64,000 nucleotides of DNA from a virus (IMGVR_UViG_3300045002_000015:8781-72780); one strand, 5' to 3'. Shown: positions 1 through 53,312, counted from the first letter of the stretch. Numbers and translations are program-made. The notes: generated by a model not told the origin, from the letters alone.

Positions 1-462
1 AGCGATCTCGCCCGCCCGCCGGCCCTCATACAGCGCCGCCGTCGCCAGTTCATGCACCCGCTTCGCCGCATCGAGCGGTATCGAGGTGATCAGGTCCACC
101 TGCCGCGCCATGAGGTCCTGGTAGGCACCGCCGATCGGGGCGCTGTTCAGTTCCGCCTCGATCGCCTCACCGAGAAGCCGCGCGTGCCGCCGCCAGGCGC
201 GCCTGTCACGGCGCGCGGTTTCGGCCAGCATCCTTGCCGCCACCGCCCGCGCCCAAGGCGCCAGGACCGCCGCGTAGCGCTGTAGCGTGGCCACCAGGGC
301 GGCGACCTGCGTCGCATCCTCGGGGTCGAACCCGCTGGCCACGTGGCCGACCTGCTGGGCGATCTTGCGAAGCTGCGCCCGGTAATAGCGCTCGCCGGCC
401 GCCCGGACGCGCTGCCAGACCGCCCGCTGGCGGCGGGTCTCGCGCCGGAGCGGTTCGGCCAT
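1..462 (-). CDS. Phage head morphogenesis protein (SPP1 gp7/MuF-like), 3' end truncated by window edge
   Basis: Not in ORF track; translated manually: MAEPLRRE..AGERYYRAQLRKIAQQVG..YAAVLAPWARAVA..QVDLITSIPLDAAKRVHELA, the pattern of MuF proteins that follow DUF1073 portals. Confidence 0.8.
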   Translation of the reverse strand, partial: MAEPLRRETRRQRAVWQRVRAAGERYYRAQLRKIAQQVGHVASGFDPEDATQVAALVATLQRYAAVLAPWARAVAARMLAETARRDRRAWRRHARLLGEAIEAELNSAPIGGAYQDLMARQVDLITSIPLDAAKRVHELATAALYEGRRAGEIA

Positions 463-471
463 CCGGTCAGG

Positions 472-615
472 CTAGCGGCGCGACCATTTGCGCCGCAGCG
501 CGTCGAGCACCCTGCGGCCGGCGCCGCGCGCGTCCTCGACGTTCCGGTCCTCGGCTTCCTGCGCCGGCTGCCATTCATCGAGCGCGCGGATGCCGAAAAT
601 GTCGACGACCAGCAT
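472..615 (-). CDS. Small hypothetical protein (47 aa)
   Basis: ATG overlaps stop of the upstream receiver gene; MLVVDIFGIRALDEW... Confidence 0.35.
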   Translation of the reverse strand: MLVVDIFGIRALDEWQPAQEAEDRNVEDARGAGRRVLDALRRKWSRR

Positions 616-1001
616 CAACGGTTGCGCGGCCGCGGCTTCGCCTGTTTCGCGATATCGATCGCCTTCTGCACGGTTTGCAGCGCGATCTCCATCGTGAACG
701 GCTTGGTCACCAGCGGCCAGTGGACGCAGTCCTCGCGCGCCGCCGTCGGATACCCGGAGCAAAGCGCCACGGCGAGATGATCGTCGGCGGCCTGCGCCCG
801 GTACGCCAGATCGACGCCGGCCGTGGGCCTGCCATCAACCCGCACATCGGCGAACAGCACATCAATGGAATGCGCCGCGAGCACGGCCTCCGCCTCGGCG
901 ATCGTCTGCGCGGTGTAGACGGTGAAACCCTGCCCCAGGAACAATTCCTGTTGCAGCCGCAGGATCGCCGGCTCGTCCTCGACGATCAGGATCGCGGTCA
1001 T
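615..1001 (-). CDS. Single-domain response regulator (CheY-like receiver)
   Basis: ILIVEDE, LFADV (phospho-Asp), LCSGY, TKPF motifs. Confidence 0.85.
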   Translation of the reverse strand: MTAILIVEDEPAILRLQQELFLGQGFTVYTAQTIAEAEAVLAAHSIDVLFADVRVDGRPTAGVDLAYRAQAADDHLAVALCSGYPTAAREDCVHWPLVTKPFTMEIALQTVQKAIDIAKQAKPRPRNR

Positions 1002-1441
1002 TGTGGTTTCCCTTCGATGACCCGCTTGATGAAGTCCGAAATCACCGGACCTAGCACCGCCCAGAGCACGCCGCCTACCGAAACGATGAACAGGCCATAG
1101 GCCACCAGGCGGTCGCGCAGGTGCTCCAGCTTCTTGACCGAGTCCTTCAGCACCGCGAGGTCGCCGACCTCCTTGCGCACCGAGCCGACATCGTTGACGA
1201 TCGCCCGGCTCTTGAGGTCGAGTTCGCGGAACTGCGCGGTCAGCAACTCCAGCCGGCTGGTAATGACCTGATCCAATTGCCGCTGCTCGTGCTTGACCGT
1301 GCGCAGTTCATTGGTCAGCCGCTCTTCCTGGCGGACACGATCCTCCTTGACCTCCTTCAGCGTATCGGCGAGACCCCGGACCGTGCCGAGAATTTCGCCG
1401 ATCTGCTGACGCAACTGACCGGCGCCACTCTCCTCGGGCAT
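998..1441 (-). CDS. Coiled-coil protein with C-terminal TM helix (DUF1515-like, possibly holin-like)
   Basis: Long heptad region followed by hydrophobic LVAYGLFIVSVGGVLWAVLG. Confidence 0.55.
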   Translation of the reverse strand: MPEESGAGQLRQQIGEILGTVRGLADTLKEVKEDRVRQEERLTNELRTVKHEQRQLDQVITSRLELLTAQFRELDLKSRAIVNDVGSVRKEVGDLAVLKDSVKKLEHLRDRLVAYGLFIVSVGGVLWAVLGPVISDFIKRVIEGKPQ

Positions 1442-1445
1442 CGCG

Positions 1446-2051
1446 CTACCTTGCCAGCCGCAGCACCGACCACCATGCGACGAGGCCCATCAGCAGCCCG
1501 GAAAAGGCGAACAGCGTATCGGGATTGGCAATCAGCGTGGTGCCCGACATCAGGCACCAGAAAAAGCCGGACATCGCCAATCCGATGCAGCGCGGGATCA
1601 GGCTGCCGCGCTTGTCCTGCCGACTGTAAACCATCGCCAGGCCGAGGATTTTCATCGCGGCAGCGGCCAGGGCGAAGGCTGCCCAGGCCCGTTCATAGCC
1701 CGCCAGTCCGATCGCCGAGCGATAGGGCGCGTTGATACTGGTGAAATGATAGGGCGAGAGCCAGAGCACCGCCGTCGCCCAGAGCGAGGACAGCGATAGC
1801 AGTATCTCGATGACGACGATATCGGTCTGGCGCAGCAGATAGAGCGGCGCGCGCGCGATGCGCAGCAATTCATTGAGTTCGGCAATCTGGATCGACATGC
1901 GCTCAAGATCATGCGCCATGCGATCAAGCTCGCGGATCGTGCCGACGCGAAACTCGACAATGCCACGATCGCCGGTCTCGACGCGCGAGCGAAAGTCGGA
2001 GTCATCCGGGGTAATAGCGACTGGCCGGCGCGGCGGATCGGTCTCGCTCAA
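1446..2051 (-). CDS. Membrane protein, about 4 TM segments in C-terminal half
   Basis: Hydrophobic segments; tightly coupled to neighbours. Confidence 0.6.
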   Translation of the reverse strand: MSETDPPRRPVAITPDDSDFRSRVETGDRGIVEFRVGTIRELDRMAHDLERMSIQIAELNELLRIARAPLYLLRQTDIVVIEILLSLSSLWATAVLWLSPYHFTSINAPYRSAIGLAGYERAWAAFALAAAAMKILGLAMVYSRQDKRGSLIPRCIGLAMSGFFWCLMSGTTLIANPDTLFAFSGLLMGLVAWWSVLRLAR

Positions 2052-3943
2052 GCCGCCAGCGTGTAAACGTCAACGTGGTCCTGGTAAGTCGGCACGAATA
2101 TGCGCCCACCCGAGATCACCGGCGGCGTGAACTTGGCGAAGGTAAATTGCACGTTCCAATCCTGCGAGCGCCACAGCGGGCGCAGCCGCCGCGTGCCATC
2201 GGGCCGGATATCGAAATGCTCTGGATCGTAGACCACGAGAAAACCGCCGGTGACTTCCTTGTTTGCGTTACCATAAGGAAACGTCACCGCCAGCAAGCCG
2301 GTGCCGGCAACATTGCCATTGGACGAGACTGTCATCATGCCGCCGGTCATCCCGCCGGGCGGCCGTTTCGCGTTCGGCGAAGCAAACTCGTCCGAGTTGG
2401 CCAGATACGAGATCGCCTTGGTCGCGCGATCGATCCCCCAGGCCCGCACCGGACCGTTCTCGCCGCAGGTGAACACCATCGGGCCATTGACGGGGGACTC
2501 GTAATAGACCGGCGTCGAATGCTGGTGGTGCGTCTGCTGCGCGTAGTCCACATTCAACTTGGTCAGATCGGTGGGCGCGGGCGAAGCGTCCCAGCCCGGG
2601 AAGAAGGTGAACCAGAACGCCTGTTTGAGGTGCCGGTAGTTCGCCGCGATCGCCTCAGGCGATGCGAAGTCGGCCAGCGCGGTATGGCCCATGGCATCGG
2701 GATCGAGCGTATAGACGATGCCATCCTTGCCGCAACTCAGCAGCAACCCGAGCGAGGGGATCAGCAGCACACCGGCCGAGCCGAGGTCCTGATCGGTCCA
2801 GCCATTGCCGCCACCGGCGGCGTCGGGCGGCACCGGGCGCCGTCCTGGTCGATCGGGTATCGAGTCGATCGGCCCGTCGCCGTCCGGCTCGCGCAGCATC
2901 ATCTGCGCCGGCCGTGGACGCTCCGCGGCGATGCTGACGGTATCGGCCGGCATGCCGGCGCGCAGTGCATCGGTGAACGGCGCGAAATTGCCGGCCACGC
3001 TGAAGCTGTTGCCGTTCAGGCTGAGCTTGACGATCGACTCCGAGAACTCGGTCGCACCATCGAACGAGCCGTTGCCGGTCGCCAGATAGATGTTGCCGGC
3101 ATCGTCGGCGGCCGGCCCACCGCCGGCCAGCCAGATGCCACCGCCATGGTAGCGCGGCGTGTCATTCCACGCCGCCTGCACCTGGAAAGGGCTGACGGAG
3201 AGCGCGAGGACCCAGCCGTGGTTGGTTGGCGCGCTCTCCGCGCCTGCCGCGAAACAGACGACGACGGCTTTCCGGGAAAGAAGAAGCGCGGTGCGCTGCT
3301 TGCGGTAGATCGTCCCGAGCGTCTGCTGCGGTATGCCATGGCCGGCATCGAATGTCACATCGGTCAGATCGACCGGCGCCGCGGCGGGCGAGCCGTCGCC
3401 GGCGTTGAAGGCGTGCGCATAATAGCGCGCGTTGGCAACCGAGCGATCGGGCGACGACCAGGCGACGCAATAGCCGATCATGGTGTTGGGATCGATGACC
3501 GGCGTGCCGAGGATGCCCCAGTTGTCATTGATCGCGAACATGTCGAGGCCGGCCGTGCCCTTGACCGGAATGCCGAGCTTCTTCGCCCAGACCACCTCTC
3601 CGGTCTCGGCATTGAAGGCCCATAGCCCGTCCGACATCGACGCCTGGATCGCGAGATTGAGCCGAAACCCGGTGGGGGTCATCACATTGGGGACGATCAG
3701 CACCGAGGCTTCGCAGCCGCGCGCATCGCCCTCCATTTGCAGCGTATAGGCGCGGCGGATGCCGTGCAGGCGCACAGCGTCCTGGGTCAGCGTCGTCTCG
3801 GCGCGGTTCCAGCCGGAGCGCGCGCTGTCGTAGCCGCGCGTCAGGACCGCCGCAAAGCCGGGCGATGCTGTCGGCTGGGCATCGGCACCCGTCAGCGCGA
3901 AACAGCCGCCAGCGCCAAGCACGGCCCGCCGGGTGAGCCTCAA
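2048..3943 (-). CDS. Tat-exported PQQ-like beta-propeller protein
   Basis: MRLTRRAVLG twin-arginine signal; repeats such as LWAFNAETGEVVW, GILGTPVID, DQDLGSAG, GKDG, KFTPPVISGGRIFV. Confidence 0.7.
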   Translation of the reverse strand: MRLTRRAVLGAGGCFALTGADAQPTASPGFAAVLTRGYDSARSGWNRAETTLTQDAVRLHGIRRAYTLQMEGDARGCEASVLIVPNVMTPTGFRLNLAIQASMSDGLWAFNAETGEVVWAKKLGIPVKGTAGLDMFAINDNWGILGTPVIDPNTMIGYCVAWSSPDRSVANARYYAHAFNAGDGSPAAAPVDLTDVTFDAGHGIPQQTLGTIYRKQRTALLLSRKAVVVCFAAGAESAPTNHGWVLALSVSPFQVQAAWNDTPRYHGGGIWLAGGGPAADDAGNIYLATGNGSFDGATEFSESIVKLSLNGNSFSVAGNFAPFTDALRAGMPADTVSIAAERPRPAQMMLREPDGDGPIDSIPDRPGRRPVPPDAAGGGNGWTDQDLGSAGVLLIPSLGLLLSCGKDGIVYTLDPDAMGHTALADFASPEAIAANYRHLKQAFWFTFFPGWDASPAPTDLTKLNVDYAQQTHHQHSTPVYYESPVNGPMVFTCGENGPVRAWGIDRATKAISYLANSDEFASPNAKRPPGGMTGGMMTVSSNGNVAGTGLLAVTFPYGNANKEVTGGFLVVYDPEHFDIRPDGTRRLRPLWRSQDWNVQFTFAKFTPPVISGGRIFVPTYQDHVDVYTLAA

Positions 3944-5709
3944 ATGCCGAACTCGGACGGATGCAGCTCAACCGGCGCCATGTAGGTCACGCTGCAAATG
4001 AACGGCGTGCGCTGCCCCGCCCCGAATCCGGTGCCGGCGGCAATGATGATGTGCCAGCCGCGTGCGACGGTGTCGCCATAAACGCGATTGGCGTGGCCGT
4101 GCAAAAGCTGGCTGGCGTCGGGACCCAATATTTGCATCTGCACGCCGAACGTGGCCGGCTCGCCGGCGGCATCCAGCATGCGCACCGAGATCGGCGTGTG
4201 CGCCTCGCACCACACCCGGCCCACCCGCATCGGCTGCGCGGTCAACGGCGCGATATCCAGATCGTCGGCGCCGAAGAACGCCTGCGTCGTGTAGCGCGCC
4301 TGCGCCTTGATGACCGGACTGCCCTGATAACCGGCCGGCGCCCAACAGCCATAGCCCAGCCCGTTGGCCGCCGGCGGCACGCCGGTTGTCACCTGCCCCC
4401 AGGCATTCGTCCAGCAGTCCTGCTCGTTGTTGCCGGTATAATCATGCAGCCGCAGATTCGGCCCGAACGCGGTCTGCACCGTCGCCGTCTTCCAGCCCGG
4501 ATTGAAGACGTCGTTATTCAGCGTCACCAGCAGACCGGGATGCCCGGTGCGTTCGAAGACGTAGACATGCGGGTCGCTGCGCAGACGCGGGATGGTCCCG
4601 CCGCCGGAAAAGTGGTGCGCGATCCAGCAGAGGTTGTTGATGCGTTCGTGCAGCCCGTAACAATTCGGCTGCGACGACCAATCGCGGTAGTAAATCTGCG
4701 GCAGGCCCTCGCCAGAAAGCAGCAGCGCGTAGCCCTGGATTTTATTGAAGACTACAGTGGCGAAGCCGTTCGTGTCGCTGTCGAGGCTTTCGACGAACGG
4801 CACCGCATGCATCGGATCGACGGCGATCAGTCCGCGCCCGGCGAGATTGCCCATGAAGAAGGCCCCGCCGTTGTTACACATGGGCATGACCATGTTGTAA
4901 TGAAAATCGAAATCGGCGGCGGACATGAGGCGATCGATAGATTGCAGCCAGTTCTCCAAACCTTCGCCACCGAACCAGGACCAGGTGCCGCCGGAAGCGA
5001 ACTCGCCGAAGAACCATTTGCCCGCCATCCCTGGCGAGCGGACGAAGCGCTTGACGAACTCAACCGCCAGCCCCTTAGTGTCATCGATGCGCGCGCCGTC
5101 GAAATGCACGGTGCGGAACAGCCAGTCGGCGGCCTCGATCAGGCCGGTCGCCACATAATCCGGTGGTTGGGCGTTGATCGGACATAACTCGTCGCCGAAA
5201 CTGAAATCGTCCTGCGGCGCCGGTACCGGGTCCTCGGAGACACGCGGCGGGGCGCCGCGGAAACACGGCGGGTCCTTCGGAAAACGGCCCGCCGTCGGCC
5301 CACCCGATGCGCTGTAGCGGTAGACGCCGTTGTGGCCGCCCATCCGCTGGTGCATCACGTGGTCGGCCAGCACGTTCATGCCGTTGGCATGCACGATCGC
5401 CGCCGCGCGGCGAAGCTGGTCGGCATAGCCGAACCGGGTCGGAATGCCGCCGAACTGCGCCGTGTCCTTCGATCCGATATCGTAGTCGTCGAACACGCCA
5501 TAGCCGTCGGCGCCCGGATAAGGCCCGGCATTGGTCTTCAACGACGGCGGAAACAACACGTCGGTGATGCCCCACGCGGCCCAATGCTGCGCCAGCGCGG
5601 CGATCTGGTCATAGAACCATGGGATGCTCTTGTCGCCATCGAACGGCGACGGCACCGAGACATTCGGCGCCTGGCGGTAGTTCGCCCACATCATGATCCT
5701 AGGCGCCAA
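3940..5709 (-). CDS. GH13 alpha-amylase-like glycoside hydrolase
   Basis: GYGVFDDYDIG..TRFG, FDGARIDDTKG (nucleophile), FFGEF (acid/base), FVESLD, GLPQIYY. Confidence 0.85.
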   Translation of the reverse strand: MAPRIMMWANYRQAPNVSVPSPFDGDKSIPWFYDQIAALAQHWAAWGITDVLFPPSLKTNAGPYPGADGYGVFDDYDIGSKDTAQFGGIPTRFGYADQLRRAAAIVHANGMNVLADHVMHQRMGGHNGVYRYSASGGPTAGRFPKDPPCFRGAPPRVSEDPVPAPQDDFSFGDELCPINAQPPDYVATGLIEAADWLFRTVHFDGARIDDTKGLAVEFVKRFVRSPGMAGKWFFGEFASGGTWSWFGGEGLENWLQSIDRLMSAADFDFHYNMVMPMCNNGGAFFMGNLAGRGLIAVDPMHAVPFVESLDSDTNGFATVVFNKIQGYALLLSGEGLPQIYYRDWSSQPNCYGLHERINNLCWIAHHFSGGGTIPRLRSDPHVYVFERTGHPGLLVTLNNDVFNPGWKTATVQTAFGPNLRLHDYTGNNEQDCWTNAWGQVTTGVPPAANGLGYGCWAPAGYQGSPVIKAQARYTTQAFFGADDLDIAPLTAQPMRVGRVWCEAHTPISVRMLDAAGEPATFGVQMQILGPDASQLLHGHANRVYGDTVARGWHIIIAAGTGFGAGQRTPFICSVTYMAPVELHPSEFGI

Positions 5710-6318: not shown

Positions 6319-6504
6319 TTACATGGTGCGCGGGCGCGGCAGCGGCGCGCGGCACTTCGGGCAGATCACCCGCCGCGCGAGGCTTTCCTCGATCTCGGAT
6401 GCCGCACACTCGCTGACGTGGGAAAAGCCGCAGGTGCAGACCCAGAGGAAGCGCGCCTTTGGCTCCATCTGGCCCCCCCACGCATAGTCCTCGTCGAGCA
6501 TCAC
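6319..6504 (-). CDS. Small zinc-ribbon-like protein
   Basis: CTCG..C..CPKC; overlaps portal stop. Confidence 0.55.
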   Translation of the reverse strand: MMLDEDYAWGGQMEPKARFLWVCTCGFSHVSECAASEIEESLARRVICPKCRAPLPRPRTM

Positions 6505-8597
6505 TCGGTGCGCTCCTGGTGATTGGGCGCTTCGGTCTGGAGCACGTAGGGAAAGCCGGCCAGCCAGCGCTTGAACGCCGGGATGCTCATGGTCTCGACG
6601 CCGCCCATGCGGGTGATCCCGCTCTGGTCCGGCCAGGCGTTGATATAGGCGTTCACCGCCTCCTGCTGGGAGCCGAAATCCAGCATCACCTTGTGCTCGT
6701 CGAACCCGCCGTCGGGTTTCTGCTGACGGATGATATAGACCTCTTCGGCATCAGGGTTATCGCCGATGTAGCAGTCCATCTGCTCGGCGCCGCCCTCGGC
6801 GGAGCCGGTGCGCGAAATATAGCCGTAATGCGCCGGGATCGGCACGCCCTCGCTGAAGCGCCGCTGGCCGCGCTCGTATTCCAGCACGATATTCAGCCCA
6901 TGCCGATTGATCAGCGAAAGCTGGTCATTGGTCAGGATGGCTTTCACCTGCGCCGCCTTGCCGCGGTGGCCGAATAGTGCCGCCACCTGCTCGCCCTTGC
7001 CGTTCCGCCCGGCACCATTGAGCGGCATCGGCGCCGCCGTGGCGGCCGCGTTGCCGCGCAGCAATTCGATGACTTGGCGGTTCAGCGGCCGGATCGGTCG
7101 CCGCCGCATGGGCAGATCGGCATCGTCCTCTCGCTCGGGTCGCTCCGGCTCTCTCTCTGGAGCATGCGGCGGCGGGACACGTGCAGCCTCGATTCCCGGC
7201 GCCTCTCCGGGTTCCGCCATCGGATCGGGCGGATTATCCTCGGCCTGTTCAATCTCCTCGTCCGTAATGTTCGACCAGACGGCCGTCCATTTGGACTGTT
7301 CCTTTAATTCCTGCAACACGGTCTTACGCCCCACCATGCCGGCCTCGTACGCCTGAAGCGCGGCCTGGGTGATGGTGGAGGCGACCGAGGCTTTCTGGTC
7401 CTCGGCCAATTGCCAGAGCGGGCGGAAGGAAAAACCAAACCCCTCGGGCAATGGCTCGCCGAACTCGCTGCGGTGCAGCGCCTCGAACAGCGCGGTCACC
7501 GGGCCGCGCAGCTTGGCCTCCTGCTGACTGTTGATCATGTCATAATAGTTGCGAATGTCACTATCGCCGGTCGCGTTCAGACCGGCCGGGCTTTGGCCGA
7601 ACAGCCGCACCAGCGGTATCTGCGCCGCGCCGGAAAGCTGTTGGCCGAATTGCACCAGCACTTCGGAAAGACCGCCGAAATTGTACTGGTATGCCTCGAA
7701 CTTGTCGGTGGTATCCATGATGGTCATGCCCTCATTCTGCTGCATCAGCCGAATGAGACCCATCTGTTCCAGAAACGCCTGGTACGCCTTGCCGCCGCCG
7801 GAGATCAGATCGCGCAGGCCCTCGACGGCGTAAGTGCGCAGGTGCGCCTTGAACACCAGTTGCGCCGCGCCCATCGTGGTGCTGTCGAATGCGAACATGC
7901 GATCGAGCATCGGCTCGATGACCGACAGCCCCCAGAGATTTTCGGCGATCTTCTGCCAATAGGGTAGATCGACGCCCTCGAAACGCAGGCAGCGGGAGTG
8001 GTGCACGCGCATGCTCGGCACCGAGTGCGCATCGGAAACCACGTCGTAGTAACGCGGCAGGCCGAACGCCGGGCCGAGATCGCGGACCGTGTCCTCCAGC
8101 GAGGGATTGACCATCCAGCGGTCGAGCACCATCAGGCCCTGGAAGCGCCCGCGCCCGATCGCCTCGTAACGCAGCGGCTCGCTCGGATTGTGGCCGTCGA
8201 TCATCAGCACGCCGATCGCGCCACCATAGAGCCGCGCCCACTTGATGACGCCCTGCAAGCGCTGCCAAAGCTGCAACTCGATCCACTTCTCCATGAGCCG
8301 GGCCTCGTCCTCCGGCGTCATGTCGGTGGTGAGCATCACGCCAGCGCGTGTCATGTCCTCAGCCACCGAGTCGACGATCGCGCGCACCAGCCATGAGCCG
8401 CGATATGCCATTTCGAGCTGGTTATGACTGCGGCTGATCGGCGAGATTTGGTAGGACGAGCCAGCGAGGAGGTTACGCGCCCCGTAACCCAGATTGGCGG
8501 CGAAGTTGACCAGCGAGTCGGTGACAAACCGGCGCGGCGCCGACGAGCCGGCGGGCACGCGGATACGCGGCTTATCGCTGCTGCTCGAACCGCTCAA
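6501..8597 (-). CDS. Phage portal protein (DUF1073/anti-CBASS Acb1-like portal family) fused to a C-terminal inorganic-pyrophosphatase-like domain
   Basis: YRGSWLVRAIVDSVAEDMTRAG, WARLYGG, AAQIPLVRLFGQSPAGLNATGDSDIRNYYDMINSQQE; C-terminal HYGYISRT..MDCYIG..FDEHKVMLDF. Confidence 0.9.
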   Translation of the reverse strand: MSGSSSSDKPRIRVPAGSSAPRRFVTDSLVNFAANLGYGARNLLAGSSYQISPISRSHNQLEMAYRGSWLVRAIVDSVAEDMTRAGVMLTTDMTPEDEARLMEKWIELQLWQRLQGVIKWARLYGGAIGVLMIDGHNPSEPLRYEAIGRGRFQGLMVLDRWMVNPSLEDTVRDLGPAFGLPRYYDVVSDAHSVPSMRVHHSRCLRFEGVDLPYWQKIAENLWGLSVIEPMLDRMFAFDSTTMGAAQLVFKAHLRTYAVEGLRDLISGGGKAYQAFLEQMGLIRLMQQNEGMTIMDTTDKFEAYQYNFGGLSEVLVQFGQQLSGAAQIPLVRLFGQSPAGLNATGDSDIRNYYDMINSQQEAKLRGPVTALFEALHRSEFGEPLPEGFGFSFRPLWQLAEDQKASVASTITQAALQAYEAGMVGRKTVLQELKEQSKWTAVWSNITDEEIEQAEDNPPDPMAEPGEAPGIEAARVPPPHAPEREPERPEREDDADLPMRRRPIRPLNRQVIELLRGNAAATAAPMPLNGAGRNGKGEQVAALFGHRGKAAQVKAILTNDQLSLINRHGLNIVLEYERGQRRFSEGVPIPAHYGYISRTGSAEGGAEQMDCYIGDNPDAEEVYIIRQQKPDGGFDEHKVMLDFGSQQEAVNAYINAWPDQSGITRMGGVETMSIPAFKRWLAGFPYVLQTEAPNHQERTE

Positions 8598-10901: not shown

Positions 10902-11211
10902 AGCTCTCGCTCCTCTGTCCAGGACGTCACCACCCCAATTCCATTTCTTCACCCGGGCGGCGTTCGCCGCCGTATCGCCCAGCGCGATCCGCCGGGACGC
11001 TGATCCTTGCCGAGCACCTGGCGGATACGTGCGCGCGAAGGTGGACGGGGGCGCTTGACCGAGATCGCCTCGGCGCGCACCGGACGGCTCAGCGATGAGA
11101 TGCCGGTCAGATTGATATCGATGAATGTCGCCATGCTATGCTGTTGAGCAGGAGCGAAGCGGCTGCGTGAGCGGCTTTGCGTGGCACTCAAAAGGGAAGC
11201 GAGGAGGCGCC

Positions 11212-15294: not shown

Positions 15295-15855
15295 CTATCC
15301 TTCGTCGTCGCCGGAGGCTTCGATGATCCGCAGCGCCGGCGTCGGCTGATTGTCCTGGGTCTCCGCATCAACATCGATCGCGCGCACCGGCTGGATCACC
15401 AGCACCGGGGCCACGATCGAGGCGCCCGCCAGCCCGGCGCGAGAGGCGTCGGGCGAGAACCCGTGGCGCACGTTGTCCGTCACCTTCCATTCGTCGCCGG
15501 CATGTGTCTGTAGCCAATATTTCTGCGCCATCACGTTGCCCGCCAAGCCGGAGCGAATGACCGCCAGCCCCATGCTGGCAACCGTGCGCTCGTAACCTTC
15601 ATCCAACTCCTGGCGAAACACCTTGCGCAGCGTTATCTCGCAGATGCCTTCCCGATCGCCGCGGTAGCGCGTGATATTGCGTGCGATGATGCGTTGCGGC
15701 ACGCGGTTTGCCGCCATGAAGCGCACCAGCATGCGCTGCGCGTCATTCGGAACGAATGGCGGCTGACCGGGCATCGCGCGCGGCTGGGTCGGCCCGAAGG
15801 GGTCCGGCTCCTCAACAAAATCGTCAACTATTTCAGTATCTTCGGTGTCCTGCAT
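15295..15855 (-). CDS. Terminase small subunit (putative)
   Basis: PNDAQRMLVRFMAA..IIARNI..ICEITLRKVFRQELDEG..GNVMAQKYWLQTHAG; position between MTase and terL. Confidence 0.75.
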   Translation of the reverse strand: MQDTEDTEIVDDFVEEPDPFGPTQPRAMPGQPPFVPNDAQRMLVRFMAANRVPQRIIARNITRYRGDREGICEITLRKVFRQELDEGYERTVASMGLAVIRSGLAGNVMAQKYWLQTHAGDEWKVTDNVRHGFSPDASRAGLAGASIVAPVLVIQPVRAIDVDAETQDNQPTPALRIIEASGDDEG

Positions 15856-15916
15856 TATGACCGCCCGTCATCAATACGGTTGATACTGGTGTGAATCGAC
15901 CAAAAGAATAGGAACC

Positions 15917-28298: not shown

Positions 28299-28310
28299 AA
28301 GGGGGAAACG

Positions 28311-29428: not shown

Positions 29429-29429
29429 C

Positions 29430-30103: not shown

Positions 30104-30107
30104 GACG

Positions 30108-33627: not shown

Positions 33628-33631
33628 CCTT

Positions 33632-34036: not shown

Positions 34037-34040
34037 TCAG

Positions 34041-34310: not shown

Positions 34311-34313
34311 CGA

Positions 34314-35414: not shown

Positions 35415-35427
35415 GGGAGGAGGCAGT

Positions 35428-44261: not shown

Positions 44262-45296
44262 GTGGCCTGCTTCGATCATACCTATGGCGTCGAAATCGAG
44301 TGCTATCTGCCGGAAGGCTCCACAGCGGCCGACGCGGCGGCCGCAATCAATGCGCGGCTGGGCGCCACCGGGCGCTGCGCGGCCGAGAGCTACAATCACC
44401 TCACCCGCGACCATTGGAAAATCGTTCCCGACGGCTCGCTCGGCGACTACGCTCGCGGCATTGAGGTGGTCTCCCCAGTCCTGCGCGGTGAGGCGGGGCT
44501 TGAGGCGCTGAGCCGCGTCATGGACGCGCTCGAGGACTTCGGCTGCACGGTATCGCGCCGCTGCGGCCTGCACGTCCATGTCGGGATCGGCCCACGGCGA
44601 ACGGACTTCTTCCGGCGCCTGCTCAAAGCCTACGCTCATTTCGAGCCGGTGATCGACAGCCTGATGCCGCCATCGCGGCGAGCCAGCGCCAATCTCTACT
44701 GCCGCTCCGTTACCCATATCGCGTTCACCGCCATCGATGCGGCCGTCAGTCTCTCGACCCTTATAGGGCTGATGAGCGCGCGCGCCGAAGCGCGCTATCA
44801 CAAGCTGAACCTCGCGGCGCATCGGCGCTACGGCACGGTCGAATTCCGCCAGCATTCGGGCACGCTCGATGCGACCAAGGCGCGCAATTGGACGCTGCTT
44901 TGCCTGCGCCTCGTCGATGCGATCATACAGGGCCGCGATCCGCGCGCGGCGGCCGTCGCGCCGGGACAAATCAACCGCGCCCCAGCGGACAGCAAGGCCC
45001 GGCTGGTCGGTGACCTCATGCTGCGTCCCCAAGGCGTAAGCCGGCCCGAGGCGATGGCGGCAACCGGATGGCCTTCGATCTCGCTGCCGCAGCAGGCGGC
45101 GATATGCGGGCTTTCCTTCACCACCCAGCGAACTGGTAATCGGACCCGCTATTTCGCCCGCGCCGCGCAGGCGTCATCCGCCACGCCCGCGACGCTGGAG
45201 GCGCTGTTGCAGTTCTGCGGCTGCGCACCACCGGAATGCGCTTACTTCCGCGCCCGTGCCCGGAACCTCTCGCCTCAGGTGCAGTGGGCCGCTTGA
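44262..45296 (+). CDS. Amidoligase (COOH-NH2 ligase type 2 family) with inserted wHTH-like segment
   Basis: TYGVEIEC, WKIVPDGSL, IEVVSP, CGLHVHVG, RYHKLN, TVEFRQH. Confidence 0.9.
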   Translation: MACFDHTYGVEIECYLPEGSTAADAAAAINARLGATGRCAAESYNHLTRDHWKIVPDGSLGDYARGIEVVSPVLRGEAGLEALSRVMDALEDFGCTVSRRCGLHVHVGIGPRRTDFFRRLLKAYAHFEPVIDSLMPPSRRASANLYCRSVTHIAFTAIDAAVSLSTLIGLMSARAEARYHKLNLAAHRRYGTVEFRQHSGTLDATKARNWTLLCLRLVDAIIQGRDPRAAAVAPGQINRAPADSKARLVGDLMLRPQGVSRPEAMAATGWPSISLPQQAAICGLSFTTQRTGNRTRYFARAAQASSATPATLEALLQFCGCAPPECAYFRARARNLSPQVQWAA

Positions 45297-45310
45297 AACC
45301 GCCGGACGAG

Positions 45311-45328
45311 TGGTATTTATATAGGCCG
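45311..45328 (+). promoter_or_regulatory. Second copy of the operator before the HTH gene
   Basis: TGGTATTTATATAGGCC vs TGGTATATATATAGGCC at 44227. Confidence 0.65.
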
Positions 45329-45341
45329 AAGGAGGGCCAGA

Positions 45342-45581
45342 ATGGCTGAAATACACCCCCCAAGCAAGCGGGCGGAGGCCCGCGAAGGCATTCGGCCGGA
45401 GGTGCTGATCTCCTGGCGCGAGCGCATGGGCTATTCGCAGCGCGAGGCGAGCGAGGCGCTGGATTGCTCGCGCGCCGCCCTGCGGCACTGGGAACAGGGC
45501 ACGAACCGTATCCCGCGCTACATCGGGCTGGCCTGTGCTGCGCTCGCGCTTGGCATGACCGCCTATGGCGGTAAGAAGTAA
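45342..45581 (+). CDS. XRE HTH regulator
   Basis: WRERMGYSQREASEALDCSRAALRHWEQG..IPRYIGLAC. Confidence 0.85.
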   Translation: MAEIHPPSKRAEAREGIRPEVLISWRERMGYSQREASEALDCSRAALRHWEQGTNRIPRYIGLACAALALGMTAYGGKK

Positions 45582-45597
45582 ACGGAGAAGCACATAC

Positions 45598-46152
45598 ATG
45601 GGTCTATACTTCGCTTATGGCTCGAACCTGCATGTTGGCCAAATGCGTCTCCGGTGTCCGGCGGCGGTCCCGCTCGCCCGCTACCGGCTCCGCAATTGGC
45701 GGCTGGTATTCCGTGGTGTCGCCGATTGCATCGCGGAGGAAGGCGCGGTCTGCTATGGCGGCGTCTGGCGCATCACCCCGGCGTGCGAACGCGCGCTCGA
45801 TATCTACGAAGGCGTCGAGTCGGGCCTGTACCGCAAGGAATATCTGCCGATCAAGCCAACGCCCGAGGGCGATACGGATATCCTTCTCTACGTCATGAAC
45901 TCGACCGGGATCATGCCGCCGAGCCAGCACTATCTTGGCATCATCCGGCAAGGGTACCGCTACTTTTCCATGCCACCGCGCGCCCGCACCTTGCTCAACC
46001 AGGCAGTGCGCGAATCCTGGGATGACAAGGCGCCGTCCTATCGCGAACGGTGGCGCTATCGCAGAACCGGACGGCCACCACTCGCGGCCCGTCCCGCCGC
46101 GCCGGCCATGCCAGCGACCGGCCAACAAATCACGCTGGCGATCAAGGAGTAA
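45598..46152 (+). CDS. Gamma-glutamylcyclotransferase (AIG2-like) family protein
   Basis: YFAYGSNL, LVFRGVADC, LDIYEG, PSQHYLGII. Confidence 0.9.
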   Translation: MGLYFAYGSNLHVGQMRLRCPAAVPLARYRLRNWRLVFRGVADCIAEEGAVCYGGVWRITPACERALDIYEGVESGLYRKEYLPIKPTPEGDTDILLYVMNSTGIMPPSQHYLGIIRQGYRYFSMPPRARTLLNQAVRESWDDKAPSYRERWRYRRTGRPPLAARPAAPAMPATGQQITLAIKE

Positions 46153-47760: not shown

Positions 47761-47985
47761 CTACCGCCAGCCAGGGTCGCCGATGTAGCGTTTTTCGAAC
47801 GCGATGCGGTCGCCGTCGACCACGGCATGGTAGTAAGCCGCCCCGGCCGCCACCACGACCTCGCGGACCCGCCCCGGCAACACATGCGGGCGGACCCGCC
47901 GGTACAGCCGCCGCTTATCGTCATGCACGACCCAGCCATTGCCCTTGGGCAGCGGATGCACCGCAACGACTGCGGCGCGTCTCAC
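47761..47985 (-). CDS. Hypothetical protein
   Basis: Overlaps relaxase stop. Confidence 0.45.
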   Translation of the reverse strand: MRRAAVVAVHPLPKGNGWVVHDDKRRLYRRVRPHVLPGRVREVVVAAGAAYYHAVVDGDRIAFEKRYIGDPGWR

Positions 47986-50900
47986 CGCCCGATCCCCCGC
48001 GACCGGTCCGCCCGCCGCTGCCGCCGGCTCGGCGCGGCGGCGCGCGGCGTGCGCTCCGGCGCGCGATCGCGCTCAATCGCCGCGGTCACCGCAGCGGTCG
48101 CCTGCCGGCGGACCACTTCGTGATCCACCGTGCGGCCTTCGGCATCCGCGCGCTCGATCCGGCTCCTGAACTCGAGTTCGATCACATCCGCCAGCATACC
48201 ATCGTAGCCCTTCCCATCCGCGATCTGGCGCGCCCAGGCCGCCGCCTGCGGATCAAGTTGCGGCGCCGACTCCCGCGTCATCGGCCGCTCCGCCGCGGCG
48301 TGGTCGTGGCGCTCGATCGCCGCCACCACCGCATCCGTCGCCCGTTCCCAGAGCGCATCGTGATCCGCTGTGCGGCCCGCCGCCCGCTCGGCTTCCAGCC
48401 GGCTGCGGAATTCGAGCTGCACCACATCGGCGAACATGCCTTCGTAGCCTTTGCCTTCGGCGATCTGGCGCGTCCACACCGCCACGCGAGGATCGATACG
48501 CGGCGCCTCCGGGCCGTCCCTAGCGGCCTCTGGAACAGCCGGGGTATGGGAAGGCGCCCCATGCCCACGCGGCCGCTGTGGCGCCCCTGGCGCCCGCGCG
48601 GCGCGGTCCCAGATCGCGCGCTTGGCCGCCACCGTCCCGCGCTTGACCACTTCGGCCATCCGCGTGAAGTCGGTCGCAAGCTGCTTCAGTTCCTGCCGCG
48701 CCAGATTGCGCGCCATATTGGTCACGATGAATTCCTGCACCGCCGCCCGCCGGGTGATCTGGTTGCGGGGATCGCCGATCGGCCGGCGCTCCTTGATCTC
48801 CTCGAGTTCCGCCCCCTGGCTGGTGATGATCCAGAACCGCCGCCGATGCCGCGATGCCGCAACATAGCCTTTCAGCCCGTTGACCGTCCGCGAGCCGTGC
48901 GGGTAGAGCGCCAGCGCCTCGGTCACGGTGTCGCCCTGGCGGCTGTCAATGGTCATGGCGTCGCCATAGGTCAACCTGATCCGCTCGCCGGTCTCGGGAA
49001 ACCTGAACTGGTCCCACGGCACCGAGGCAACCCGCCCCTTGGCCGTCCGCACCGTCAATCCATCGTCTCGGATCGCCGCCACCTCCACCACGCTGCCATT
49101 GTCGCCGATCCGGCCGATATTGCCCCGCCCGAACCTGCCATAGCCGCGGTTGAACAGTCGCACCCGGTCACCCACCGCGATCGGCAGCCGGTATTCGGTG
49201 CCATGCTGATCAACGGCATCGAGGACCTTGGCATCGCCGCCGATCTCGCCCCGCGACTGGCGGCGCTCCCGGATCGCCGCACCGATCGCCAGCACATCGG
49301 CGTTCGTCGGCACGCTGATCCCGAACCGGTAGCCCGGCTCGGCGGCATGCGCGCGCGTCCGCTCGTCCCAAAGCTCGACGGCGCGCTGGATCGCATCCCT
49401 ATGGTCGCCCGGCACCAGCAGAAGCGTCCCGTCAGCCGCCTTGTGCCGCAGCGCCTCAGCGATCGTCGCCTCGTCACCGGAGTGGAACTTGGCGACAAGC
49501 TCTGCCTCCTCGCGCCGCTGCCGGACGGTCTGCAACAGCGTCGGCAGCTTGCCGAGCACCACTTCGGCCAGCCGCAGTGAATTGCCCGCCTGAATCGGAT
49601 TGCCCTGAAGTTCATGGCCGATACCCACCAGCTTGAAGCCATGCGCATCGCGCAGCTTGGCCAGATCATTCATCATGGCTGTGCCGACCTGGGATAGCTC
49701 GTCGGCGATGACCACGGTGTTCTCGCCCACCGCGATCCTGCCGCGCGCGACGCCATAGGTGAACGCGGCAATCGCCTGCGAACGCTTGACGCCCGAGTCC
49801 TTGCCGGCATGCGCCTGCCGCCAGGGCACTGTCAGGTAAACGGTATCAAGCCCGCGCGCGTGCCACGCTTCCACAAGTGGGGTCAACACGGTCGTCTTGC
49901 CTACTCCAGCAGCGCCACGGCCGACCACGACGCCGCCCGCCTCGCCCAGCGCATGCGCCAGCCCGGCCTGCTCCGCCGTCAGCCTGATACCACTTTCGCG
50001 CGCGACTTTCTCGATCGCCTCGTCGATCTCCCGCGGTGTCAGCGCATGGCGCCTGTCGGTCGCGCCCTTTTTCAGCAAGGCCACGGTCTCCTGCTCCATC
50101 CGCAGGTGCTTTTCCGTGGTGAACCGCTGCCACAGGCTTTCGCCGTCGCGGCCCTCGCCGGGCGGCGCCGGCACCTTGCCCCACAACAGCGCAGTCCGCT
50201 CGCCATCCTGGGCAACGCCTTCGGTGCGGTACGCCTTGGTGAGCGCGGCAATATCGCGCCCCGGATCGTCGCTGATCCCGGCCTCGATCAGCCCTTCCGC
50301 AGCCGCGATGCGTGCCACCTCACCGCCGAAGACCGCGCGCCGGTCCAGTTCCGCCGCGAGTTGCGGCAGTGACCGCTCGAACGCCGCCCGCAAGCGCTCG
50401 CGCTGCCGCGCCAAGAACCGCTCCCGGCCGGGCCGTAGCACGCTGCGGTGGCGGTAACCCGCCGCCTCGGCCTGCCGGTTCCAGGCGTCGAATTGCGGCT
50501 GTTTGTCTTCCGAATGCTTCTCACGGGCGGCCGCAACAGACCGGTCAACCAGCCTGACCCGCTCCTCGACCGACAGCGTGTCCCAATCCAATCCTTGCTC
50601 GCGGGCAAAACCACGTGCCGCCTCATTGCCGTCCACCGTGCGCTTGCTGAACAACTCGACCGCCCAGCGCGGGATATCGCGCACCGCCGCCATCCGGGTC
50701 CGGTCCTCAAGGCCCGCATCAACGCCGTGCTCGCGCAGCCGACGCGCGAGAAACCCTTGATAAACCTTGCCGATCTCCTTGATCTGGCCATTCAGCCGCT
50801 TGCTGTCGATCGCGCCGACATGCCCGCTCTCGGTCATGACCACGTTCGGCGTGATGCAGTGCGTGTGCAGGTGCATATCGCCGATCTGGCCCACCGCCTT

Positions 50901-51470
50901 CAGGATCGTGTTGTCCCGGTCGGCGATCTTGGCGACTGGACGGGCGGTATATTCCTCGAACTTCCACCACATCATGTGGCCTTGTTCGGCGCCTTTGCTG
51001 CCGCCGCGCCCGCGCCGCGCCCAGCCCGTGGTTTGTTCGAGGTAGGCCATGCTGCGGTCGACGGCGTAGCGGTGCGCTTCGAGGAAAATCCCCCGCTCGC
51101 GCTCGGTGGGCGCAAACGCCCAGGCGATCGAGACCGACTTCGGCGCATTCAGCGTGAAATCGTAATAAGTGATCTTCCCCTTCGCTTCGCTCGCCCGCTG
51201 GTATTGCTTGCCCTCGATGCGATCGCCATCGGCGCGCAGACCGCGCACCACGTTGGCCAACTCGCCCTGGGTAATTGGCCGCGCGGTATCGACGCCGAGC
51301 CGTTCGGCCAGCGGTGCGTACGCCCCGTCGCGCGCCGTCCCTTGCACGGCCTTGCCGTAATAACCGGCCACCAGGTCGGCGACGGATGGCTCCTGCATGG
51401 CGACATAATATTTCGCGATCTCGCCAGCGGCGAAGCTCGTCGTGGCGACGCCATCGCGGAAGGTCAGCAC
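47982..51470 (-). CDS. MobF (TrwC-like) relaxase-helicase
   Basis: Start reassigned to GTG at 51470 (MLTFR, GAGG RBS); KYY/GYY, YDFTLNAPKSVSI, DMHLHTH, FSKRT; helicase GAAGVGKT, DE, QTVRQR, YGDAMTIDSRQG. Confidence 0.93.
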   Translation of the reverse strand: MLTFRDGVATTSFAAGEIAKYYVAMQEPSVADLVAGYYGKAVQGTARDGAYAPLAERLGVDTARPITQGELANVVRGLRADGDRIEGKQYQRASEAKGKITYYDFTLNAPKSVSIAWAFAPTERERGIFLEAHRYAVDRSMAYLEQTTGWARRGRGGSKGAEQGHMMWWKFEEYTARPVAKIADRDNTILKAVGQIGDMHLHTHCITPNVVMTESGHVGAIDSKRLNGQIKEIGKVYQGFLARRLREHGVDAGLEDRTRMAAVRDIPRWAVELFSKRTVDGNEAARGFAREQGLDWDTLSVEERVRLVDRSVAAAREKHSEDKQPQFDAWNRQAEAAGYRHRSVLRPGRERFLARQRERLRAAFERSLPQLAAELDRRAVFGGEVARIAAAEGLIEAGISDDPGRDIAALTKAYRTEGVAQDGERTALLWGKVPAPPGEGRDGESLWQRFTTEKHLRMEQETVALLKKGATDRRHALTPREIDEAIEKVARESGIRLTAEQAGLAHALGEAGGVVVGRGAAGVGKTTVLTPLVEAWHARGLDTVYLTVPWRQAHAGKDSGVKRSQAIAAFTYGVARGRIAVGENTVVIADELSQVGTAMMNDLAKLRDAHGFKLVGIGHELQGNPIQAGNSLRLAEVVLGKLPTLLQTVRQRREEAELVAKFHSGDEATIAEALRHKAADGTLLLVPGDHRDAIQRAVELWDERTRAHAAEPGYRFGISVPTNADVLAIGAAIRERRQSRGEIGGDAKVLDAVDQHGTEYRLPIAVGDRVRLFNRGYGRFGRGNIGRIGDNGSVVEVAAIRDDGLTVRTAKGRVASVPWDQFRFPETGERIRLTYGDAMTIDSRQGDTVTEALALYPHGSRTVNGLKGYVAASRHRRRFWIITSQGAELEEIKERRPIGDPRNQITRRAAVQEFIVTNMARNLARQELKQLATDFTRMAEVVKRGTVAAKRAIWDRAARAPGAPQRPRGHGAPSHTPAVPEAARDGPEAPRIDPRVAVWTRQIAEGKGYEGMFADVVQLEFRSRLEAERAAGRTADHDALWERATDAVVAAIERHDHAAAERPMTRESAPQLDPQAAAWARQIADGKGYDGMLADVIELEFRSRIERADAEGRTVDHEVVRRQATAAVTAAIERDRAPERTPRAAAPSRRQRRADRSRGIGR

Positions 51471-51544
51471 CGCTGCGCCTCGATGCCGGCCTCGGCGGGG
51501 TCCATTTCCGTACCCTAAAGCCCAGCGCGCGGCTTTTGCAACAG

Positions 51545-51568
51545 GCACCGTATGGTGCAATGGTCTGA
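51545..51568 (+). other. Putative oriT nic region
   Basis: GCACC-GTAT-GGTGC hairpin followed by AATGGTCT; resembles R388 GCACCGAAAGGTGCGTATTGTCT nic; lies between relaxase and divergent triplet. Confidence 0.7.
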
Positions 51569-51678
51569 TTTTGTGACCGCCGCCTGGAACCGGCAAAATA
51601 TCCGGGTTCACGGCACGCGGTGCGCAACCGAAGAACGCGGCTTGTGCAACCACGATTGCGTCTGATAGGATGTAACCA

Positions 51679-52101
51679 ATGGCGATAACCGACGCACTGG
51701 ACCGGGCTTTGGCCCGGGCGCGGCGACGAGGCCGGGGACAGCGGGCGCGCTCGCCGCTGTTTCTGGCGATGATCGAGCGTGCGGCTCAGGTGACCGAGGC
51801 GCGGAAGGACGTGACCTGGCGCGGCCTGGCGGAGGAGCTGGCCGCCGAAGGGATCACCGGCCCGGGCGGGCGGGTGTACTCAGGCGCGGCCGTGAAGGGG
51901 GCGTTCTACCGCGCGCGGCAGGCGTTGGCTGCTGCGGGCGGGACGGTGGTGTTCGGCGCGGCGCCGAAGATTCGCAGGAAGCCAAGCCGCAAGGGGCGGG
52001 TCCGTGCGCGATCGGCGCCCGCTCTGCCGCAGGCCGATCAACCGGCGGCGATCGAGGAGAAGCCGCGGGTCCGCGACTGGCGCGATCTGATGCAGGAGTG
52101 A
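51679..52101 (+). CDS. Putative oriT/stability DNA-binding protein (TraK/StbA position)
   Basis: VTWRGLAEELAAEGITG..YSGAAVKGAFYRAR HTH-like. Confidence 0.55.
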   Translation: MAITDALDRALARARRRGRGQRARSPLFLAMIERAAQVTEARKDVTWRGLAEELAAEGITGPGGRVYSGAAVKGAFYRARQALAAAGGTVVFGAAPKIRRKPSRKGRVRARSAPALPQADQPAAIEEKPRVRDWRDLMQE

Positions 52102-52116
52102 GGGGAGGAAGGGGAT

Positions 52117-52893
52117 TTGGACACACAGGTGACTGGCGCGCCGGTGGAGACGCGCCCGGTGCTGTTGGCCGCGTCCGGCCGTGGCCGGGTCGGCAAGACC
52201 GAGATGCTGGCCGTGGTGGCGCAACTCCTGGCCGAGGACGCGGGGTTCGAGGTCGAGGTCTGGGACTGCGACCCGGCGCGCGAGGTCGGCTCGCTGAGCG
52301 GACGCTTCAAGGGCGCCAAGCGCCCGCGCTCGGGCGACCTGGAGGATCGGCGGATTTTCCTGGAGGAGCACGGTCGCCGGTTGATGGAGGCGGCCGTGGA
52401 CGGGCGCCCGTTCCATGCCGTGCTGGATGTGGGCGGTGAGGACCTGCTGTTGCCGCTGATGGATGCCGAGGTGGGCTTCGGCGAGTTCCTGTCGCGCGCC
52501 GGGGTATCATTCGTGGTCGCGCATGTGGTCGGCACCGACGATGCCGATCTGGACTACCTGCGCCGGGTCGAGAAGCTGGGCCTGATCCGCGCGACGCGCG
52601 GGGCGATCGTGCGGAACGAGGGGATGCTGCGGACGACGGAGCGGCGCGACGCGGCCTTCCAGCGGGTCAATGACGATCCGGTGGTGCGGGCGTTCACCAG
52701 CAAGGCGCGTGGCGGGCGGTTGCTGTCGATGCCGGCACTGGCGCCGGACGTGATGCAGGACGTCAAGGCGTCGGGCCAGACGTTCCGCGAGTATGCCACC
52801 GATCCCAAACGGTGCTGGGACTTCCGCGCGGTCCGGGTGGCGCACTGGCTGGCCGGCTGCGAGGAGATGCGCCGGGCGATGCTGGGGCCATGA
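52117..52893 (+). CDS. ParA/MinD-like P-loop ATPase (TraL/StbB position)
   Basis: SGRGRVGKT, WDCDP, VLDVGG. Confidence 0.75.
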   Translation: MDTQVTGAPVETRPVLLAASGRGRVGKTEMLAVVAQLLAEDAGFEVEVWDCDPAREVGSLSGRFKGAKRPRSGDLEDRRIFLEEHGRRLMEAAVDGRPFHAVLDVGGEDLLLPLMDAEVGFGEFLSRAGVSFVVAHVVGTDDADLDYLRRVEKLGLIRATRGAIVRNEGMLRTTERRDAAFQRVNDDPVVRAFTSKARGGRLLSMPALAPDVMQDVKASGQTFREYATDPKRCWDFRAVRVAHWLAGCEEMRRAMLGP

Positions 52894-53312
52894 CGGAGAA
52901 GGTCGTCCGCCTGGCTCCGCCACCGACGGGTGCCGAGGACCGGGCGCGGAGCGTATTGGCGGAGTGTGGCCTGCGGCCCGGTGATCCGCCATTCGAGGCG
53001 TATATGGCGACGGCGCGGTCGATTGATGCGGCGGCGCGGCTGGGGGATCGCATCGAGGCGCTTGCGGCGCGGCTGGAGAAGGCGGGTACGCCGTTTGATC
53101 CGCGCGCCTATGAGATCATGCGGGCGACGCTGCGCCGCGCCGTGGGGGCCTTGGGCTGGCGCCGTGTGGCGGCTGCGTTTGCGGTGGGTCTGGTTGCTGG
53201 CGGGATCAGCGCCGGCATGGCGGTTTATTGGTGGCGTGATGTGCAATTGTGGCGGCATTGCCAGAGCGTGTATGCACTGTCGGCCTGCGCCGAGATTGCC
53301 GGCCGGCTTTGA
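52890..53312 (+). CDS. Membrane-anchored protein (TraM/StbC position)
   Basis: C-terminal TM; ATGA overlap. Confidence 0.55.
   Translation: MTEKVVRLAPPPTGAEDRARSVLAECGLRPGDPPFEAYMATARSIDAAARLGDRIEALAARLEKAGTPFDPRAYEIMRATLRRAVGALGWRRVAAAFAVGLVAGGISAGMAVYWWRDVQLWRHCQSVYALSACAEIAGRL

Follow-up and report, generated by a model that had tools for sequence, protein, structure and literature searches.

The 64,000-nucleotide window analysed here (bases 8781-72780 of the single 72,780-bp IMG/VR contig IMGVR_UViG_3300045002_000015, classed as linear and derived from a soil metagenome) carries the virion, replication and switch genes of a tailed phage together with the genes for conjugation. Judged from its sequence, the element is probably a temperate contractile-tailed phage of ~100 kb, likely to be plasmid-like and non-integrating, with its own complete-looking conjugation system; we would put the probability of this reading at roughly 0.6. 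On the same reading, the contig would represent most of one ~100-kb mobile element of a soil alphaproteobacterium, a host pointed to by the GcrA-like gene and the CcrM-type methylases. The CheckV completeness of the 72.8-kb contig is ~85%. It is cut at both ends, with the right end inside an array of mini-genes, so that ~15-30% of the element lies outside it, and no host genes were found within the 72.8 kb.

The gene content was read by Pfam, PHROG and NCBIfam scans (Table 1, where genome 1-8780 is the part of the same contig left of the window). A first-pass annotation had described a phage gene set followed by an XRE regulator gene and then by virB1-B11, virD4 and a MobF relaxase gene. Both the content and the order were borne out by the scans, with VirB2 and VirB7 recognised by their position and sequence features. 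On the cro side of the divergent switch, the genes run leftward on the minus strand (methylase, GcrA, PrimPol, VapE, small genes and then TerL through MuF). The same annotation had proposed extending the contig to look for capsid and tail genes, an integrase and attachment (att) sites. The capsid genes indeed adjoin the window on its left side, within the same contig, and the tail terminator, sheath (E217_gp31 type), tube, chaperone and tape measure genes were found past its left end, in the 96% variant contig L060 only, but no integrase or att site was recovered. Exact-protein look-ups and a metagenome scan with the right-end genes, carried out to close the contig, gave nothing. There was no match to tRNAs or Rfam families in the sequence, and near-identity DNA searches of phage and plasmid collections gave nothing useful; the TerL gene has a short DNA match to Rhizobium phage terminase genes.

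The central claim of the first-pass annotation, that a phage and a conjugation system are fused in one element, was supported by finding both parts on one DNA molecule in two co-occurring strains, from two assemblers and at equal depth across the junction. A 10,722-bp Logan contig, produced by the other assembler, matches window positions 20419-31140 with one mismatch; it takes in PrimPol, the switch and the exonuclease pair, and reaches VirB4. Its depth was 12.8, compared with 14 for the next contig of this strain. A second strain, ~2-4% divergent and obtained from a second run of the same sample, is represented by a 7,662-bp contig spanning 22685-30342, and its contigs have depths of 7.8-10.4 along both the phage and the type IV secretion system (T4SS) parts. 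Of the JGI variant contigs (96-98% identity), L060 matches genome 1-6284 and continues into the tail genes, L002 matches genome 11.5-28.9 kb, and L077 matches window 38.0-53.4 kb and extends into the arrays, where it ends too. The large genes are all uninterrupted open frames in both strains. A third variant, L347 (IMGVR_UViG_3300045002_000001), adds 765 bp of the tail region and is 96% identical to L060 and 92.6% identical to the first 807 bp of the element's contig; strain mixing probably explains the assembly break at the left end. Read-assembly joints with sides of 20-24 nt were set aside as noise from other organisms.

No scar was detected between the two parts. PF00589 and PF00239 recombinases were not found in the 72.8-kb contig, and no integrase, resolvase, insertion sequence (IS) or att-like repeat was found within it, in agreement with the initial observation that no IS or att site separates the parts. 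An att core near 28.7-29.2 kb, named at the outset as the sign of two separate insertions, was not found either, as the junction zone (28250-29450) shares no repeat of more than 14 nt with the rest of the contig. Recombinase genes or att sites bounding the conjugation module, the hallmark of an integrative and conjugative element (ICE), were likewise not found within the contig. The tetranucleotide signatures of the structural and T4SS parts are as close as those of the phage modules among themselves (r=0.95). The reported lack of a compositional break therefore holds at the phage/T4SS junction but not at ~53.4 kb, where the GC content falls from 0.66 to 0.57, the value for the whole stretch before this point being 0.65. 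A PrimPol/VapE replicon and a ParA-like ATPase are present, and no integration module occurs in the unclosed contig. The element had been called a conjugative prophage or phage-plasmid, and the second of these terms fits better.

For the conjugation part, a complete-looking set of mating-pair formation (MPF_T) and MOBF genes is present, including the VirB4 ATPase, the coupling protein (T4CP), a relaxase with its catalytic motifs and the accessory VirB proteins. The T4SS operon has the order 74-aa gene, VirB1/SLT, VirB2-like, VirB3, VirB4, VirB5, 141-aa gene, VirB6, VirB7-like, VirB8, VirB9, VirB10, VirB11, GH5-like and TraG/VirD4. Pfam matches were obtained for VirB3, B5, B6, B8, B10 and B11; the match of VirB9 was weak, yet PF03524 matches its 62% homolog in contig L061. 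The NCBIfam scores were below the cut-offs for VirB4 (427 vs 957 bits) and for the T4CP (238 vs 443 bits). The relaxase keeps the YY motif and the HLHTH histidine triad, and has homologs at 96, 63, 58 and 40% identity.

Only a handful of close VirB4 homologs (99, 74, 70, 69, 67 and 52% identity) were present among 5.8 billion proteins, and scans for close relatives of VirB4 in species genomes and of TrwC in IMG/VR gave none. The T4SS homologs at 52-74% share the operon order. The VirB1-B11 order, the TraG-like T4CP and the TrwC-type relaxase-helicase resemble those of MPF_T/MOBF plasmids (R388/IncW and alphaproteobacterial VirB/TraG plasmids). The element differs from these in its VirB4, for which the best PLSDB plasmid match reached 37% identity (Acetobacteraceae, Azospirillum, Methylorubrum), in the glycoside hydrolase gene between virB11 and the T4CP gene, and in the remainder of its replicon, which consists of a phage genome. 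The small ParA-like operon, divergent from the relaxase gene, resembles stbABC of R388. It is also found beside the relaxase gene in L077 and, at 25% identity, in two 116-kb contigs described below. The glycoside hydrolase slot is kept in this T4SS lineage, and holds a GH5 gene here and in L061 (13049-14539; 48% identical) and a GH16 gene encoding 666 aa in L319 (9919-11919). The GH5-like genes of the phage part and the T4SS were considered as paralogs, but this was rejected, as their similarity is not significant. In a 40.8-kb contig of 3300047160 with a 52% VirB4, the upstream genes (100, 292 and 389 aa) match those of the element in length.

By its collinear gene set from TerL to the contractile tail, the element belongs to a clade of large myoviruses with a portal fused to an InPase domain. 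The closest complete relative that could be read is IMGVR_UViG_3300048999_000056 (G016; 112,818 bp, CheckV 100%, 126-bp terminal overlap), which is collinear with the element from TerL to the tape measure over at least 20 genes in the same order at 33-74% identity (TerL 57%, portal 47%, GH13 63%, 631-aa protein 57%, major capsid protein 70%, sheath 70%, tube 74%). The shared genes are those for TerL, portal-InPase, the block of receiver-domain, 147-, 201-, 631- and 589-aa proteins, MuF, scaffold, cement, capsid, connector, terminator, sheath, tube and tape measure; the matching Pfam families are named after proteins of E217-type myoviruses. In contrast, G016 lacks VirB4, TrwC, a T4CP and an integrase, and has no replication, switch or array genes in common with the element. 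The ~6-kb block between portal and MuF was considered as an insertion, but this was rejected since it is kept in G016 and hence clade-typical. A tail-less capsid-forming satellite (cf-PICI-like) was also rejected, given the tail genes in the 96% variant and in G016.

Among the 120 homologs listed, the full-length portal-InPase proteins lie on contigs that cluster at 95-121 kb, with none above, and identical contig sizes recur across runs (115,570 and 115,562 bp), so the clade looks like one of free genomes of ~100-120 kb. A few of these homologs carry extra fused domains (RelA/SpoT PF04607, Zeta toxin PF06414). Adding a tail region of ~29 kb, as in G016, to the 72.8 kb of the contig gives a size of ~100 kb. 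As this lies inside 95-121 kb, the conjugation genes would fit the capsid of the clade. The idea that all 95-121-kb portal-InPase genomes are conjugative was rejected, because G016, G011 and others lack VirB4 and TrwC. Moreover, the contig sizes of the portal matches differ from those of the TrwC or VirB4 matches.

The proposed search for further elements that pair phage and conjugation genes yielded one, at a remote distance, and two others in part. An IMG/VR scan with a VirB4 alignment identified IMGVR_UViG_3300031472_000015 (G022; 106,826 bp, CheckV 100%, GC content 0.63). It encodes a portal, major head protein, neck terminator, sheath (1e-117), tape-measure-like and Dit-like proteins, baseplate hub and baseplate J, with a weak terminase-like frame directly before the portal gene. 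Its conjugation genes encode TrwC (40%), T4CP, VirB11, VirB10, VirB4 (31%) and an XRE protein (40%) heading the T4SS. Thus, it shares with the element a myovirus virion set, a MOBF relaxase, a T4CP, VirB4/10/11, XRE and GcrA, and no integrase was found in it. It differs in its low identities (28% for the portal), in another module order and in a T4SS that abuts the terminase. The sole recombinase-like gene seen in G022 is an IS-type transposase (phrog_506) at 46131-47363.

The 58% TrwC homolog was located on two JGI contigs of 116,035 and 116,120 bp, whose coordinates are offset by ~9 kb, which suggests that they are circular permutations of one molecule. The 41.6 kb read from the pair (Ga0642625_00272 and Ga0642624_00259) encode a T4SS, the relaxase, a ParA-like protein and GcrA, and include two divergent mini-gene arrays with a PF00239 resolvase at their centre. 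Homologs of the 589-aa (47-53%) and 631-aa (35%) proteins occur there as well, together with large fibre-like proteins and a podophage GP4 fibre-adaptor domain. The GcrA-like regulator gene of the element (21377-21823) thus has counterparts in G022 (~62.3 kb) and in the 116-kb contigs (L078 1731-2222).

The coexistence of both gene sets can be explained in other ways. The metagenome contains several closely related strains and its contigs are often broken, which could have joined a phage contig and a plasmid contig into an assembly chimera. This is very unlikely because the junction is spanned by an independent assembly and by a second strain at even depth, and the JGI variant contigs overlap most of the remaining span. 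A true junction could still mark two elements lying side by side, such as a prophage inserted into, or forming a cointegrate with, a conjugative plasmid or ICE, with ~28.7-29.2 kb as an old scar. In its favour, phage relatives without a T4SS exist, T4SS relatives of 67-69% identity have different or unknown surroundings, a separate regulator and promoter region serves the T4SS, the contig does not reach the ends of the element, and a fusion of this kind is held to explain the Escherichia coli plasmid p1002-1 (bioRxiv 10.1101/2025.03.14.643293). We nevertheless consider this explanation unlikely, as no integrase, resolvase or att-like repeat was found in the 72.8 kb or at the junction itself, two strains 2-4% apart share the junction, the composition on both sides of it is identical, the total size stays within the range of the capsid clade, and comparable pairings occur in G022 and partly in the 116-kb contigs. 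The first-pass annotation had stated that phage relatives lacking the T4SS at the same locus would indicate two independently inserted elements. Such relatives were found, but only at long range, and the 69% T4SS relative has unrelated upstream genes. This shows modular evolution and not two separately inserted elements.

Alternatively, the element could be contiguous with one live route of transfer, either as a conjugative plasmid with a decaying or domesticated prophage, or as a phage whose T4SS and relaxase are inactive or repurposed. That no lysis gene, small terminase gene or origin of transfer (oriT) was identified, and that VirB4 and the T4CP score far under the NCBIfam cut-offs, would be in line with this. 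It is set against by the large genes being intact in both strains, the conserved relaxase motifs and a virion module that is gene-for-gene collinear with a complete phage, and the low scores fit a divergent lineage, as homologs at 52-74% share the operon order. We therefore regard a single live route as quite unlikely, and prefer a phage-plasmid with two transfer systems.

Several observations weigh against this preferred reading. The oriT announced by the first-pass annotation could not be identified, and a convincing inverted or nic-site repeat is absent from 51350-51750. A classical plasmid Rep gene is not present, and the ParA-like gene matches its family weakly (CbiA) and has no NCBIfam match. 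Neither a small terminase gene nor lysis genes were identified, although no systematic search was aimed at the latter. Beyond the right-hand array of this open-ended metagenome contig, there could be an integrase, an att site or host DNA. G016 and every other tested portal or sheath relative lack VirB4 or TrwC, and L061, the 69% T4SS relative, has unrelated genes upstream, from which it follows that the T4SS module has moved between contexts. Capsid and terminase genes were not seen in the 41.6 kb read from the 116-kb contigs, and G022 is only remotely similar, so that its fusion may have arisen independently. Phage and conjugation genes are therefore not paired throughout the clade; their combination may stem from a fairly recent capture, and either system could be inactive. 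Relatives of the phage part occur without a T4SS and those of the T4SS without the phage part, so the pairing arose by module capture and is not ancestral to the phage clade.

If the element is a conjugative phage-plasmid, its life cycle could be envisaged as follows. During lysogeny, the cI-like repressor would silence the leftward cro, replication, packaging, head and tail genes, and the PrimPol/VapE replicon and the ParA-like operon (a candidate partition or relaxosome accessory system) would maintain the element. The XRE protein could gate the VirB operon via the palindrome ahead of it, the region behind the XRE gene up to 29203 being a candidate operator and promoter of the T4SS operon. 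Upon de-repression, TrwC would nick the DNA at an oriT around 51.5 kb, and the strand would be passed to the VirB channel by the TraG-like coupling protein, with the mini-gene arrays perhaps entering the recipient first. Upon induction, the same genome would be packaged into capsids of a clade normally holding 95-121 kb.

Table 1. Features of the element, in window coordinates unless marked as genome
Feature	Position	Strand	Basis or remark
DUF2213 scaffold/protease, cement protein, major capsid protein (PF09950), DUF4054 connector, 189-aa protein (g189)	genome 1-8780		Pfam
MuF-like head morphogenesis gene, 3' part	1..462, runs off window	-	Pfam; collinear with G016 and other relatives
Clade-typical block between portal and MuF (also with 147-aa and 201-aa proteins)	615..5709	-	Pfam; same block in G016 (33-63% identity)
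Receiver-domain protein	615-1001	-	Within portal-MuF block
631-aa protein	2048-3943	-	Portal-MuF block
589-aa GH13 alpha-amylase-family protein	3940-5709	-	PDB match 1mwo, 4e-23
Portal (Phage_portal_3) fused to C-terminal InPase domain	6501..8597	-	Pfam 1.3e-107 and 1.9e-23
587-aa GH5-like protein, between terminase and portal	9189..10952	-	Weak Pfam Cellulase match
TerL: Terminase_3 and RNaseH-like nuclease domain	12511..13806	-	Pfam; G016 homolog
Strain-variable insert	15414..17215	-	331 bp instead in 96-98% variant
ParB-N6/N4 DNA methylase, inside the insert	15917-17203	-	Pfam
Replication/early block: VapE-like helicase, PrimPol, GcrA-like regulator, N6/N4 methylase	18935..23411	-	Pfam
VapE	18935-20251	-	
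PrimPol	20241-21101	-	
cro-like gene (P22_Cro/YdaS)	23964-24209	-	Divergent switch
cI-like helix-turn-helix (HTH) gene, without S24 peptidase domain	24264-24674	+	Divergent switch
Early-left operon: exonuclease, HTH protein, 389-aa partner, 142-aa protein	25868..28739	+	
RecE-type PDDEXK exonuclease (DUF3799)	25868-26737	+	
HTH protein	26734-27132	+	
389-aa exonuclease partner (phrog_3657)	27129-28298	+	
XRE regulator	28847-29119	+	Pfam 3e-14
Intergenic region with perfect 11-nt inverted repeat	arms ~29120-29130 and ~29176-29186		Read from sequence
MPF_T-type T4SS operon	29204..42983	+	Pfam, NCBIfam; syntenic in contigs L061, L319
VirB2-like, two transmembrane helices	29909-30103	+	Position and sequence features only
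VirB4	30497-32875	+	PF03135 8.8e-18; TIGR00929 1.6e-118, under curated cut-off
VirB7-like lipoprotein	~35799-35975	+	Position and sequence features only
Secreted GH5-like protein	39737-41119	+	
TraG/VirD4 coupling protein (T4CP)	~41094-42983	+	PF02534 2e-33, PF12696, TraG-type NCBIfam match
Amidoligase_2, small HTH protein, GGACT/AIG2-like cyclotransferase	44262..46152	+	Pfam
MOBF (TrwC-type) relaxase-helicase	47982..51470	-	PF08751 3.7e-38 and AAA_30
Divergent intergenic region, relaxase vs ParA-like operon	51471..51678		Sole candidate oriT site
Three-gene operon: 140-aa protein, ParA-like Walker ATPase (258 aa), second 140-aa protein	51679..53312	+	
Two divergent arrays of ~40-150-aa mini-genes around 224-aa gene	53400..64000	both	GC content 0.57; run off contig end
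224-aa hub gene	58478-59152		

Some of the remaining genes deserve comment. The GH13 and 631-aa proteins may be virion-borne glycanases or receptor-binding proteins; their homologs adjoin fibre-like genes in the 116-kb contigs. The receiver-domain gene stands alone amid the virion genes and is kept in G016 (33%), and a homolog of the 587-aa GH5-like protein (27%) lies in the G016 tail-fibre region. Strains differ by the presence or absence of the ParB-N6/N4 methylase gene. In the early-left operon, the 389-aa protein is the probable annealing partner of the exonuclease, which it directly follows in 58 of 80 metagenomic relatives. The amidoligase_2, HTH and GGACT genes lie between the T4CP and relaxase genes, and are kept in the sister strain.

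The mini-gene arrays are recombinationally active, as judged from the comparison of strains. In the 96% sister strain (L077 1-8000), the same cassettes are present at 95-99.7% identity in another order, without the 224-aa hub gene. The two 116-kb contigs differ by ~1 kb of cassettes (L079/L080 13000-17000), and their hub is a true PF00239 resolvase; the 224-aa hub gene of the element has no PF00239 match and no similarity to that resolvase. One cassette family is common to the element (60517-60810) and the 116-kb contigs, with 50% identity over 90 aa.

Among known systems, phage-plasmids of the P1, N15 and SSU5 types resemble the element in having tailed-phage virion and packaging genes with a replicon, a ParA-like gene and no integrase seen. 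Phage-plasmids of 36-77 kb from Klebsiella, Salmonella, Erwinia and Enterobacter have a homologous DUF1073 portal/MuF/DUF2213/DUF4054 head module (portal 44-55%), but 27 of these 29 were typed as non-mobilizable, whereas the element, at about twice their size, encodes a full MPF together with a T4CP and a relaxase. According to a 2025 review, the combination of a phage genome with a complete mating system has not yet been found. Among E. coli phage-plasmids, conjugation-related elements of any kind occur in only 6 of 222 (PMC10123127). The E. coli p1002-1 has been called a conjugative phage-plasmid, and was read as a fusion of two known enterobacterial plasmids (SegMantX preprint, bioRxiv 10.1101/2025.03.14.643293). 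It is similar to the element in carrying phage-plasmid and conjugative-plasmid genes on one replicon. The element differs from it in that its halves have no close free-standing relative, its junction is scar-free, and distant genomes have comparable pairings.

A broader interpretation, which we put forward tentatively, is that one or more lineages of non-integrating tailed phages of ~100-116 kb in soil Alphaproteobacteria could be self-transmissible both as contractile-tailed virions that package the whole genome and by a VirB/TrwC route under a separate XRE switch, with the arrays as exchangeable establishment or anti-defence genes for entry by mating. If so, they would rank as the first conjugative phage-plasmids from nature.

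Gene transfer is seen as the work of two distinct vehicles, phages and conjugative elements, with different costs (lysis or mating), host ranges and cargo limits. Provided that both routes work, lysis and mating would each allow the element to spread, and it could switch between killing its host for wide dispersal and quiet transfer by cell contact. With both machineries intact, mating would evade receptor-based phage resistance, while infection would evade the barriers to conjugation. Classifiers that assign sequences to either viruses or plasmids would mislabel such an element. Given the capsid limit of ~95-121 kb, it can be tested directly how the 24 kb of conjugation genes are accommodated. 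As at least one further public genome pairs virion and conjugation genes, and the two 116-kb contigs may do so, the question will, once a host is cultured, be open to experiment.

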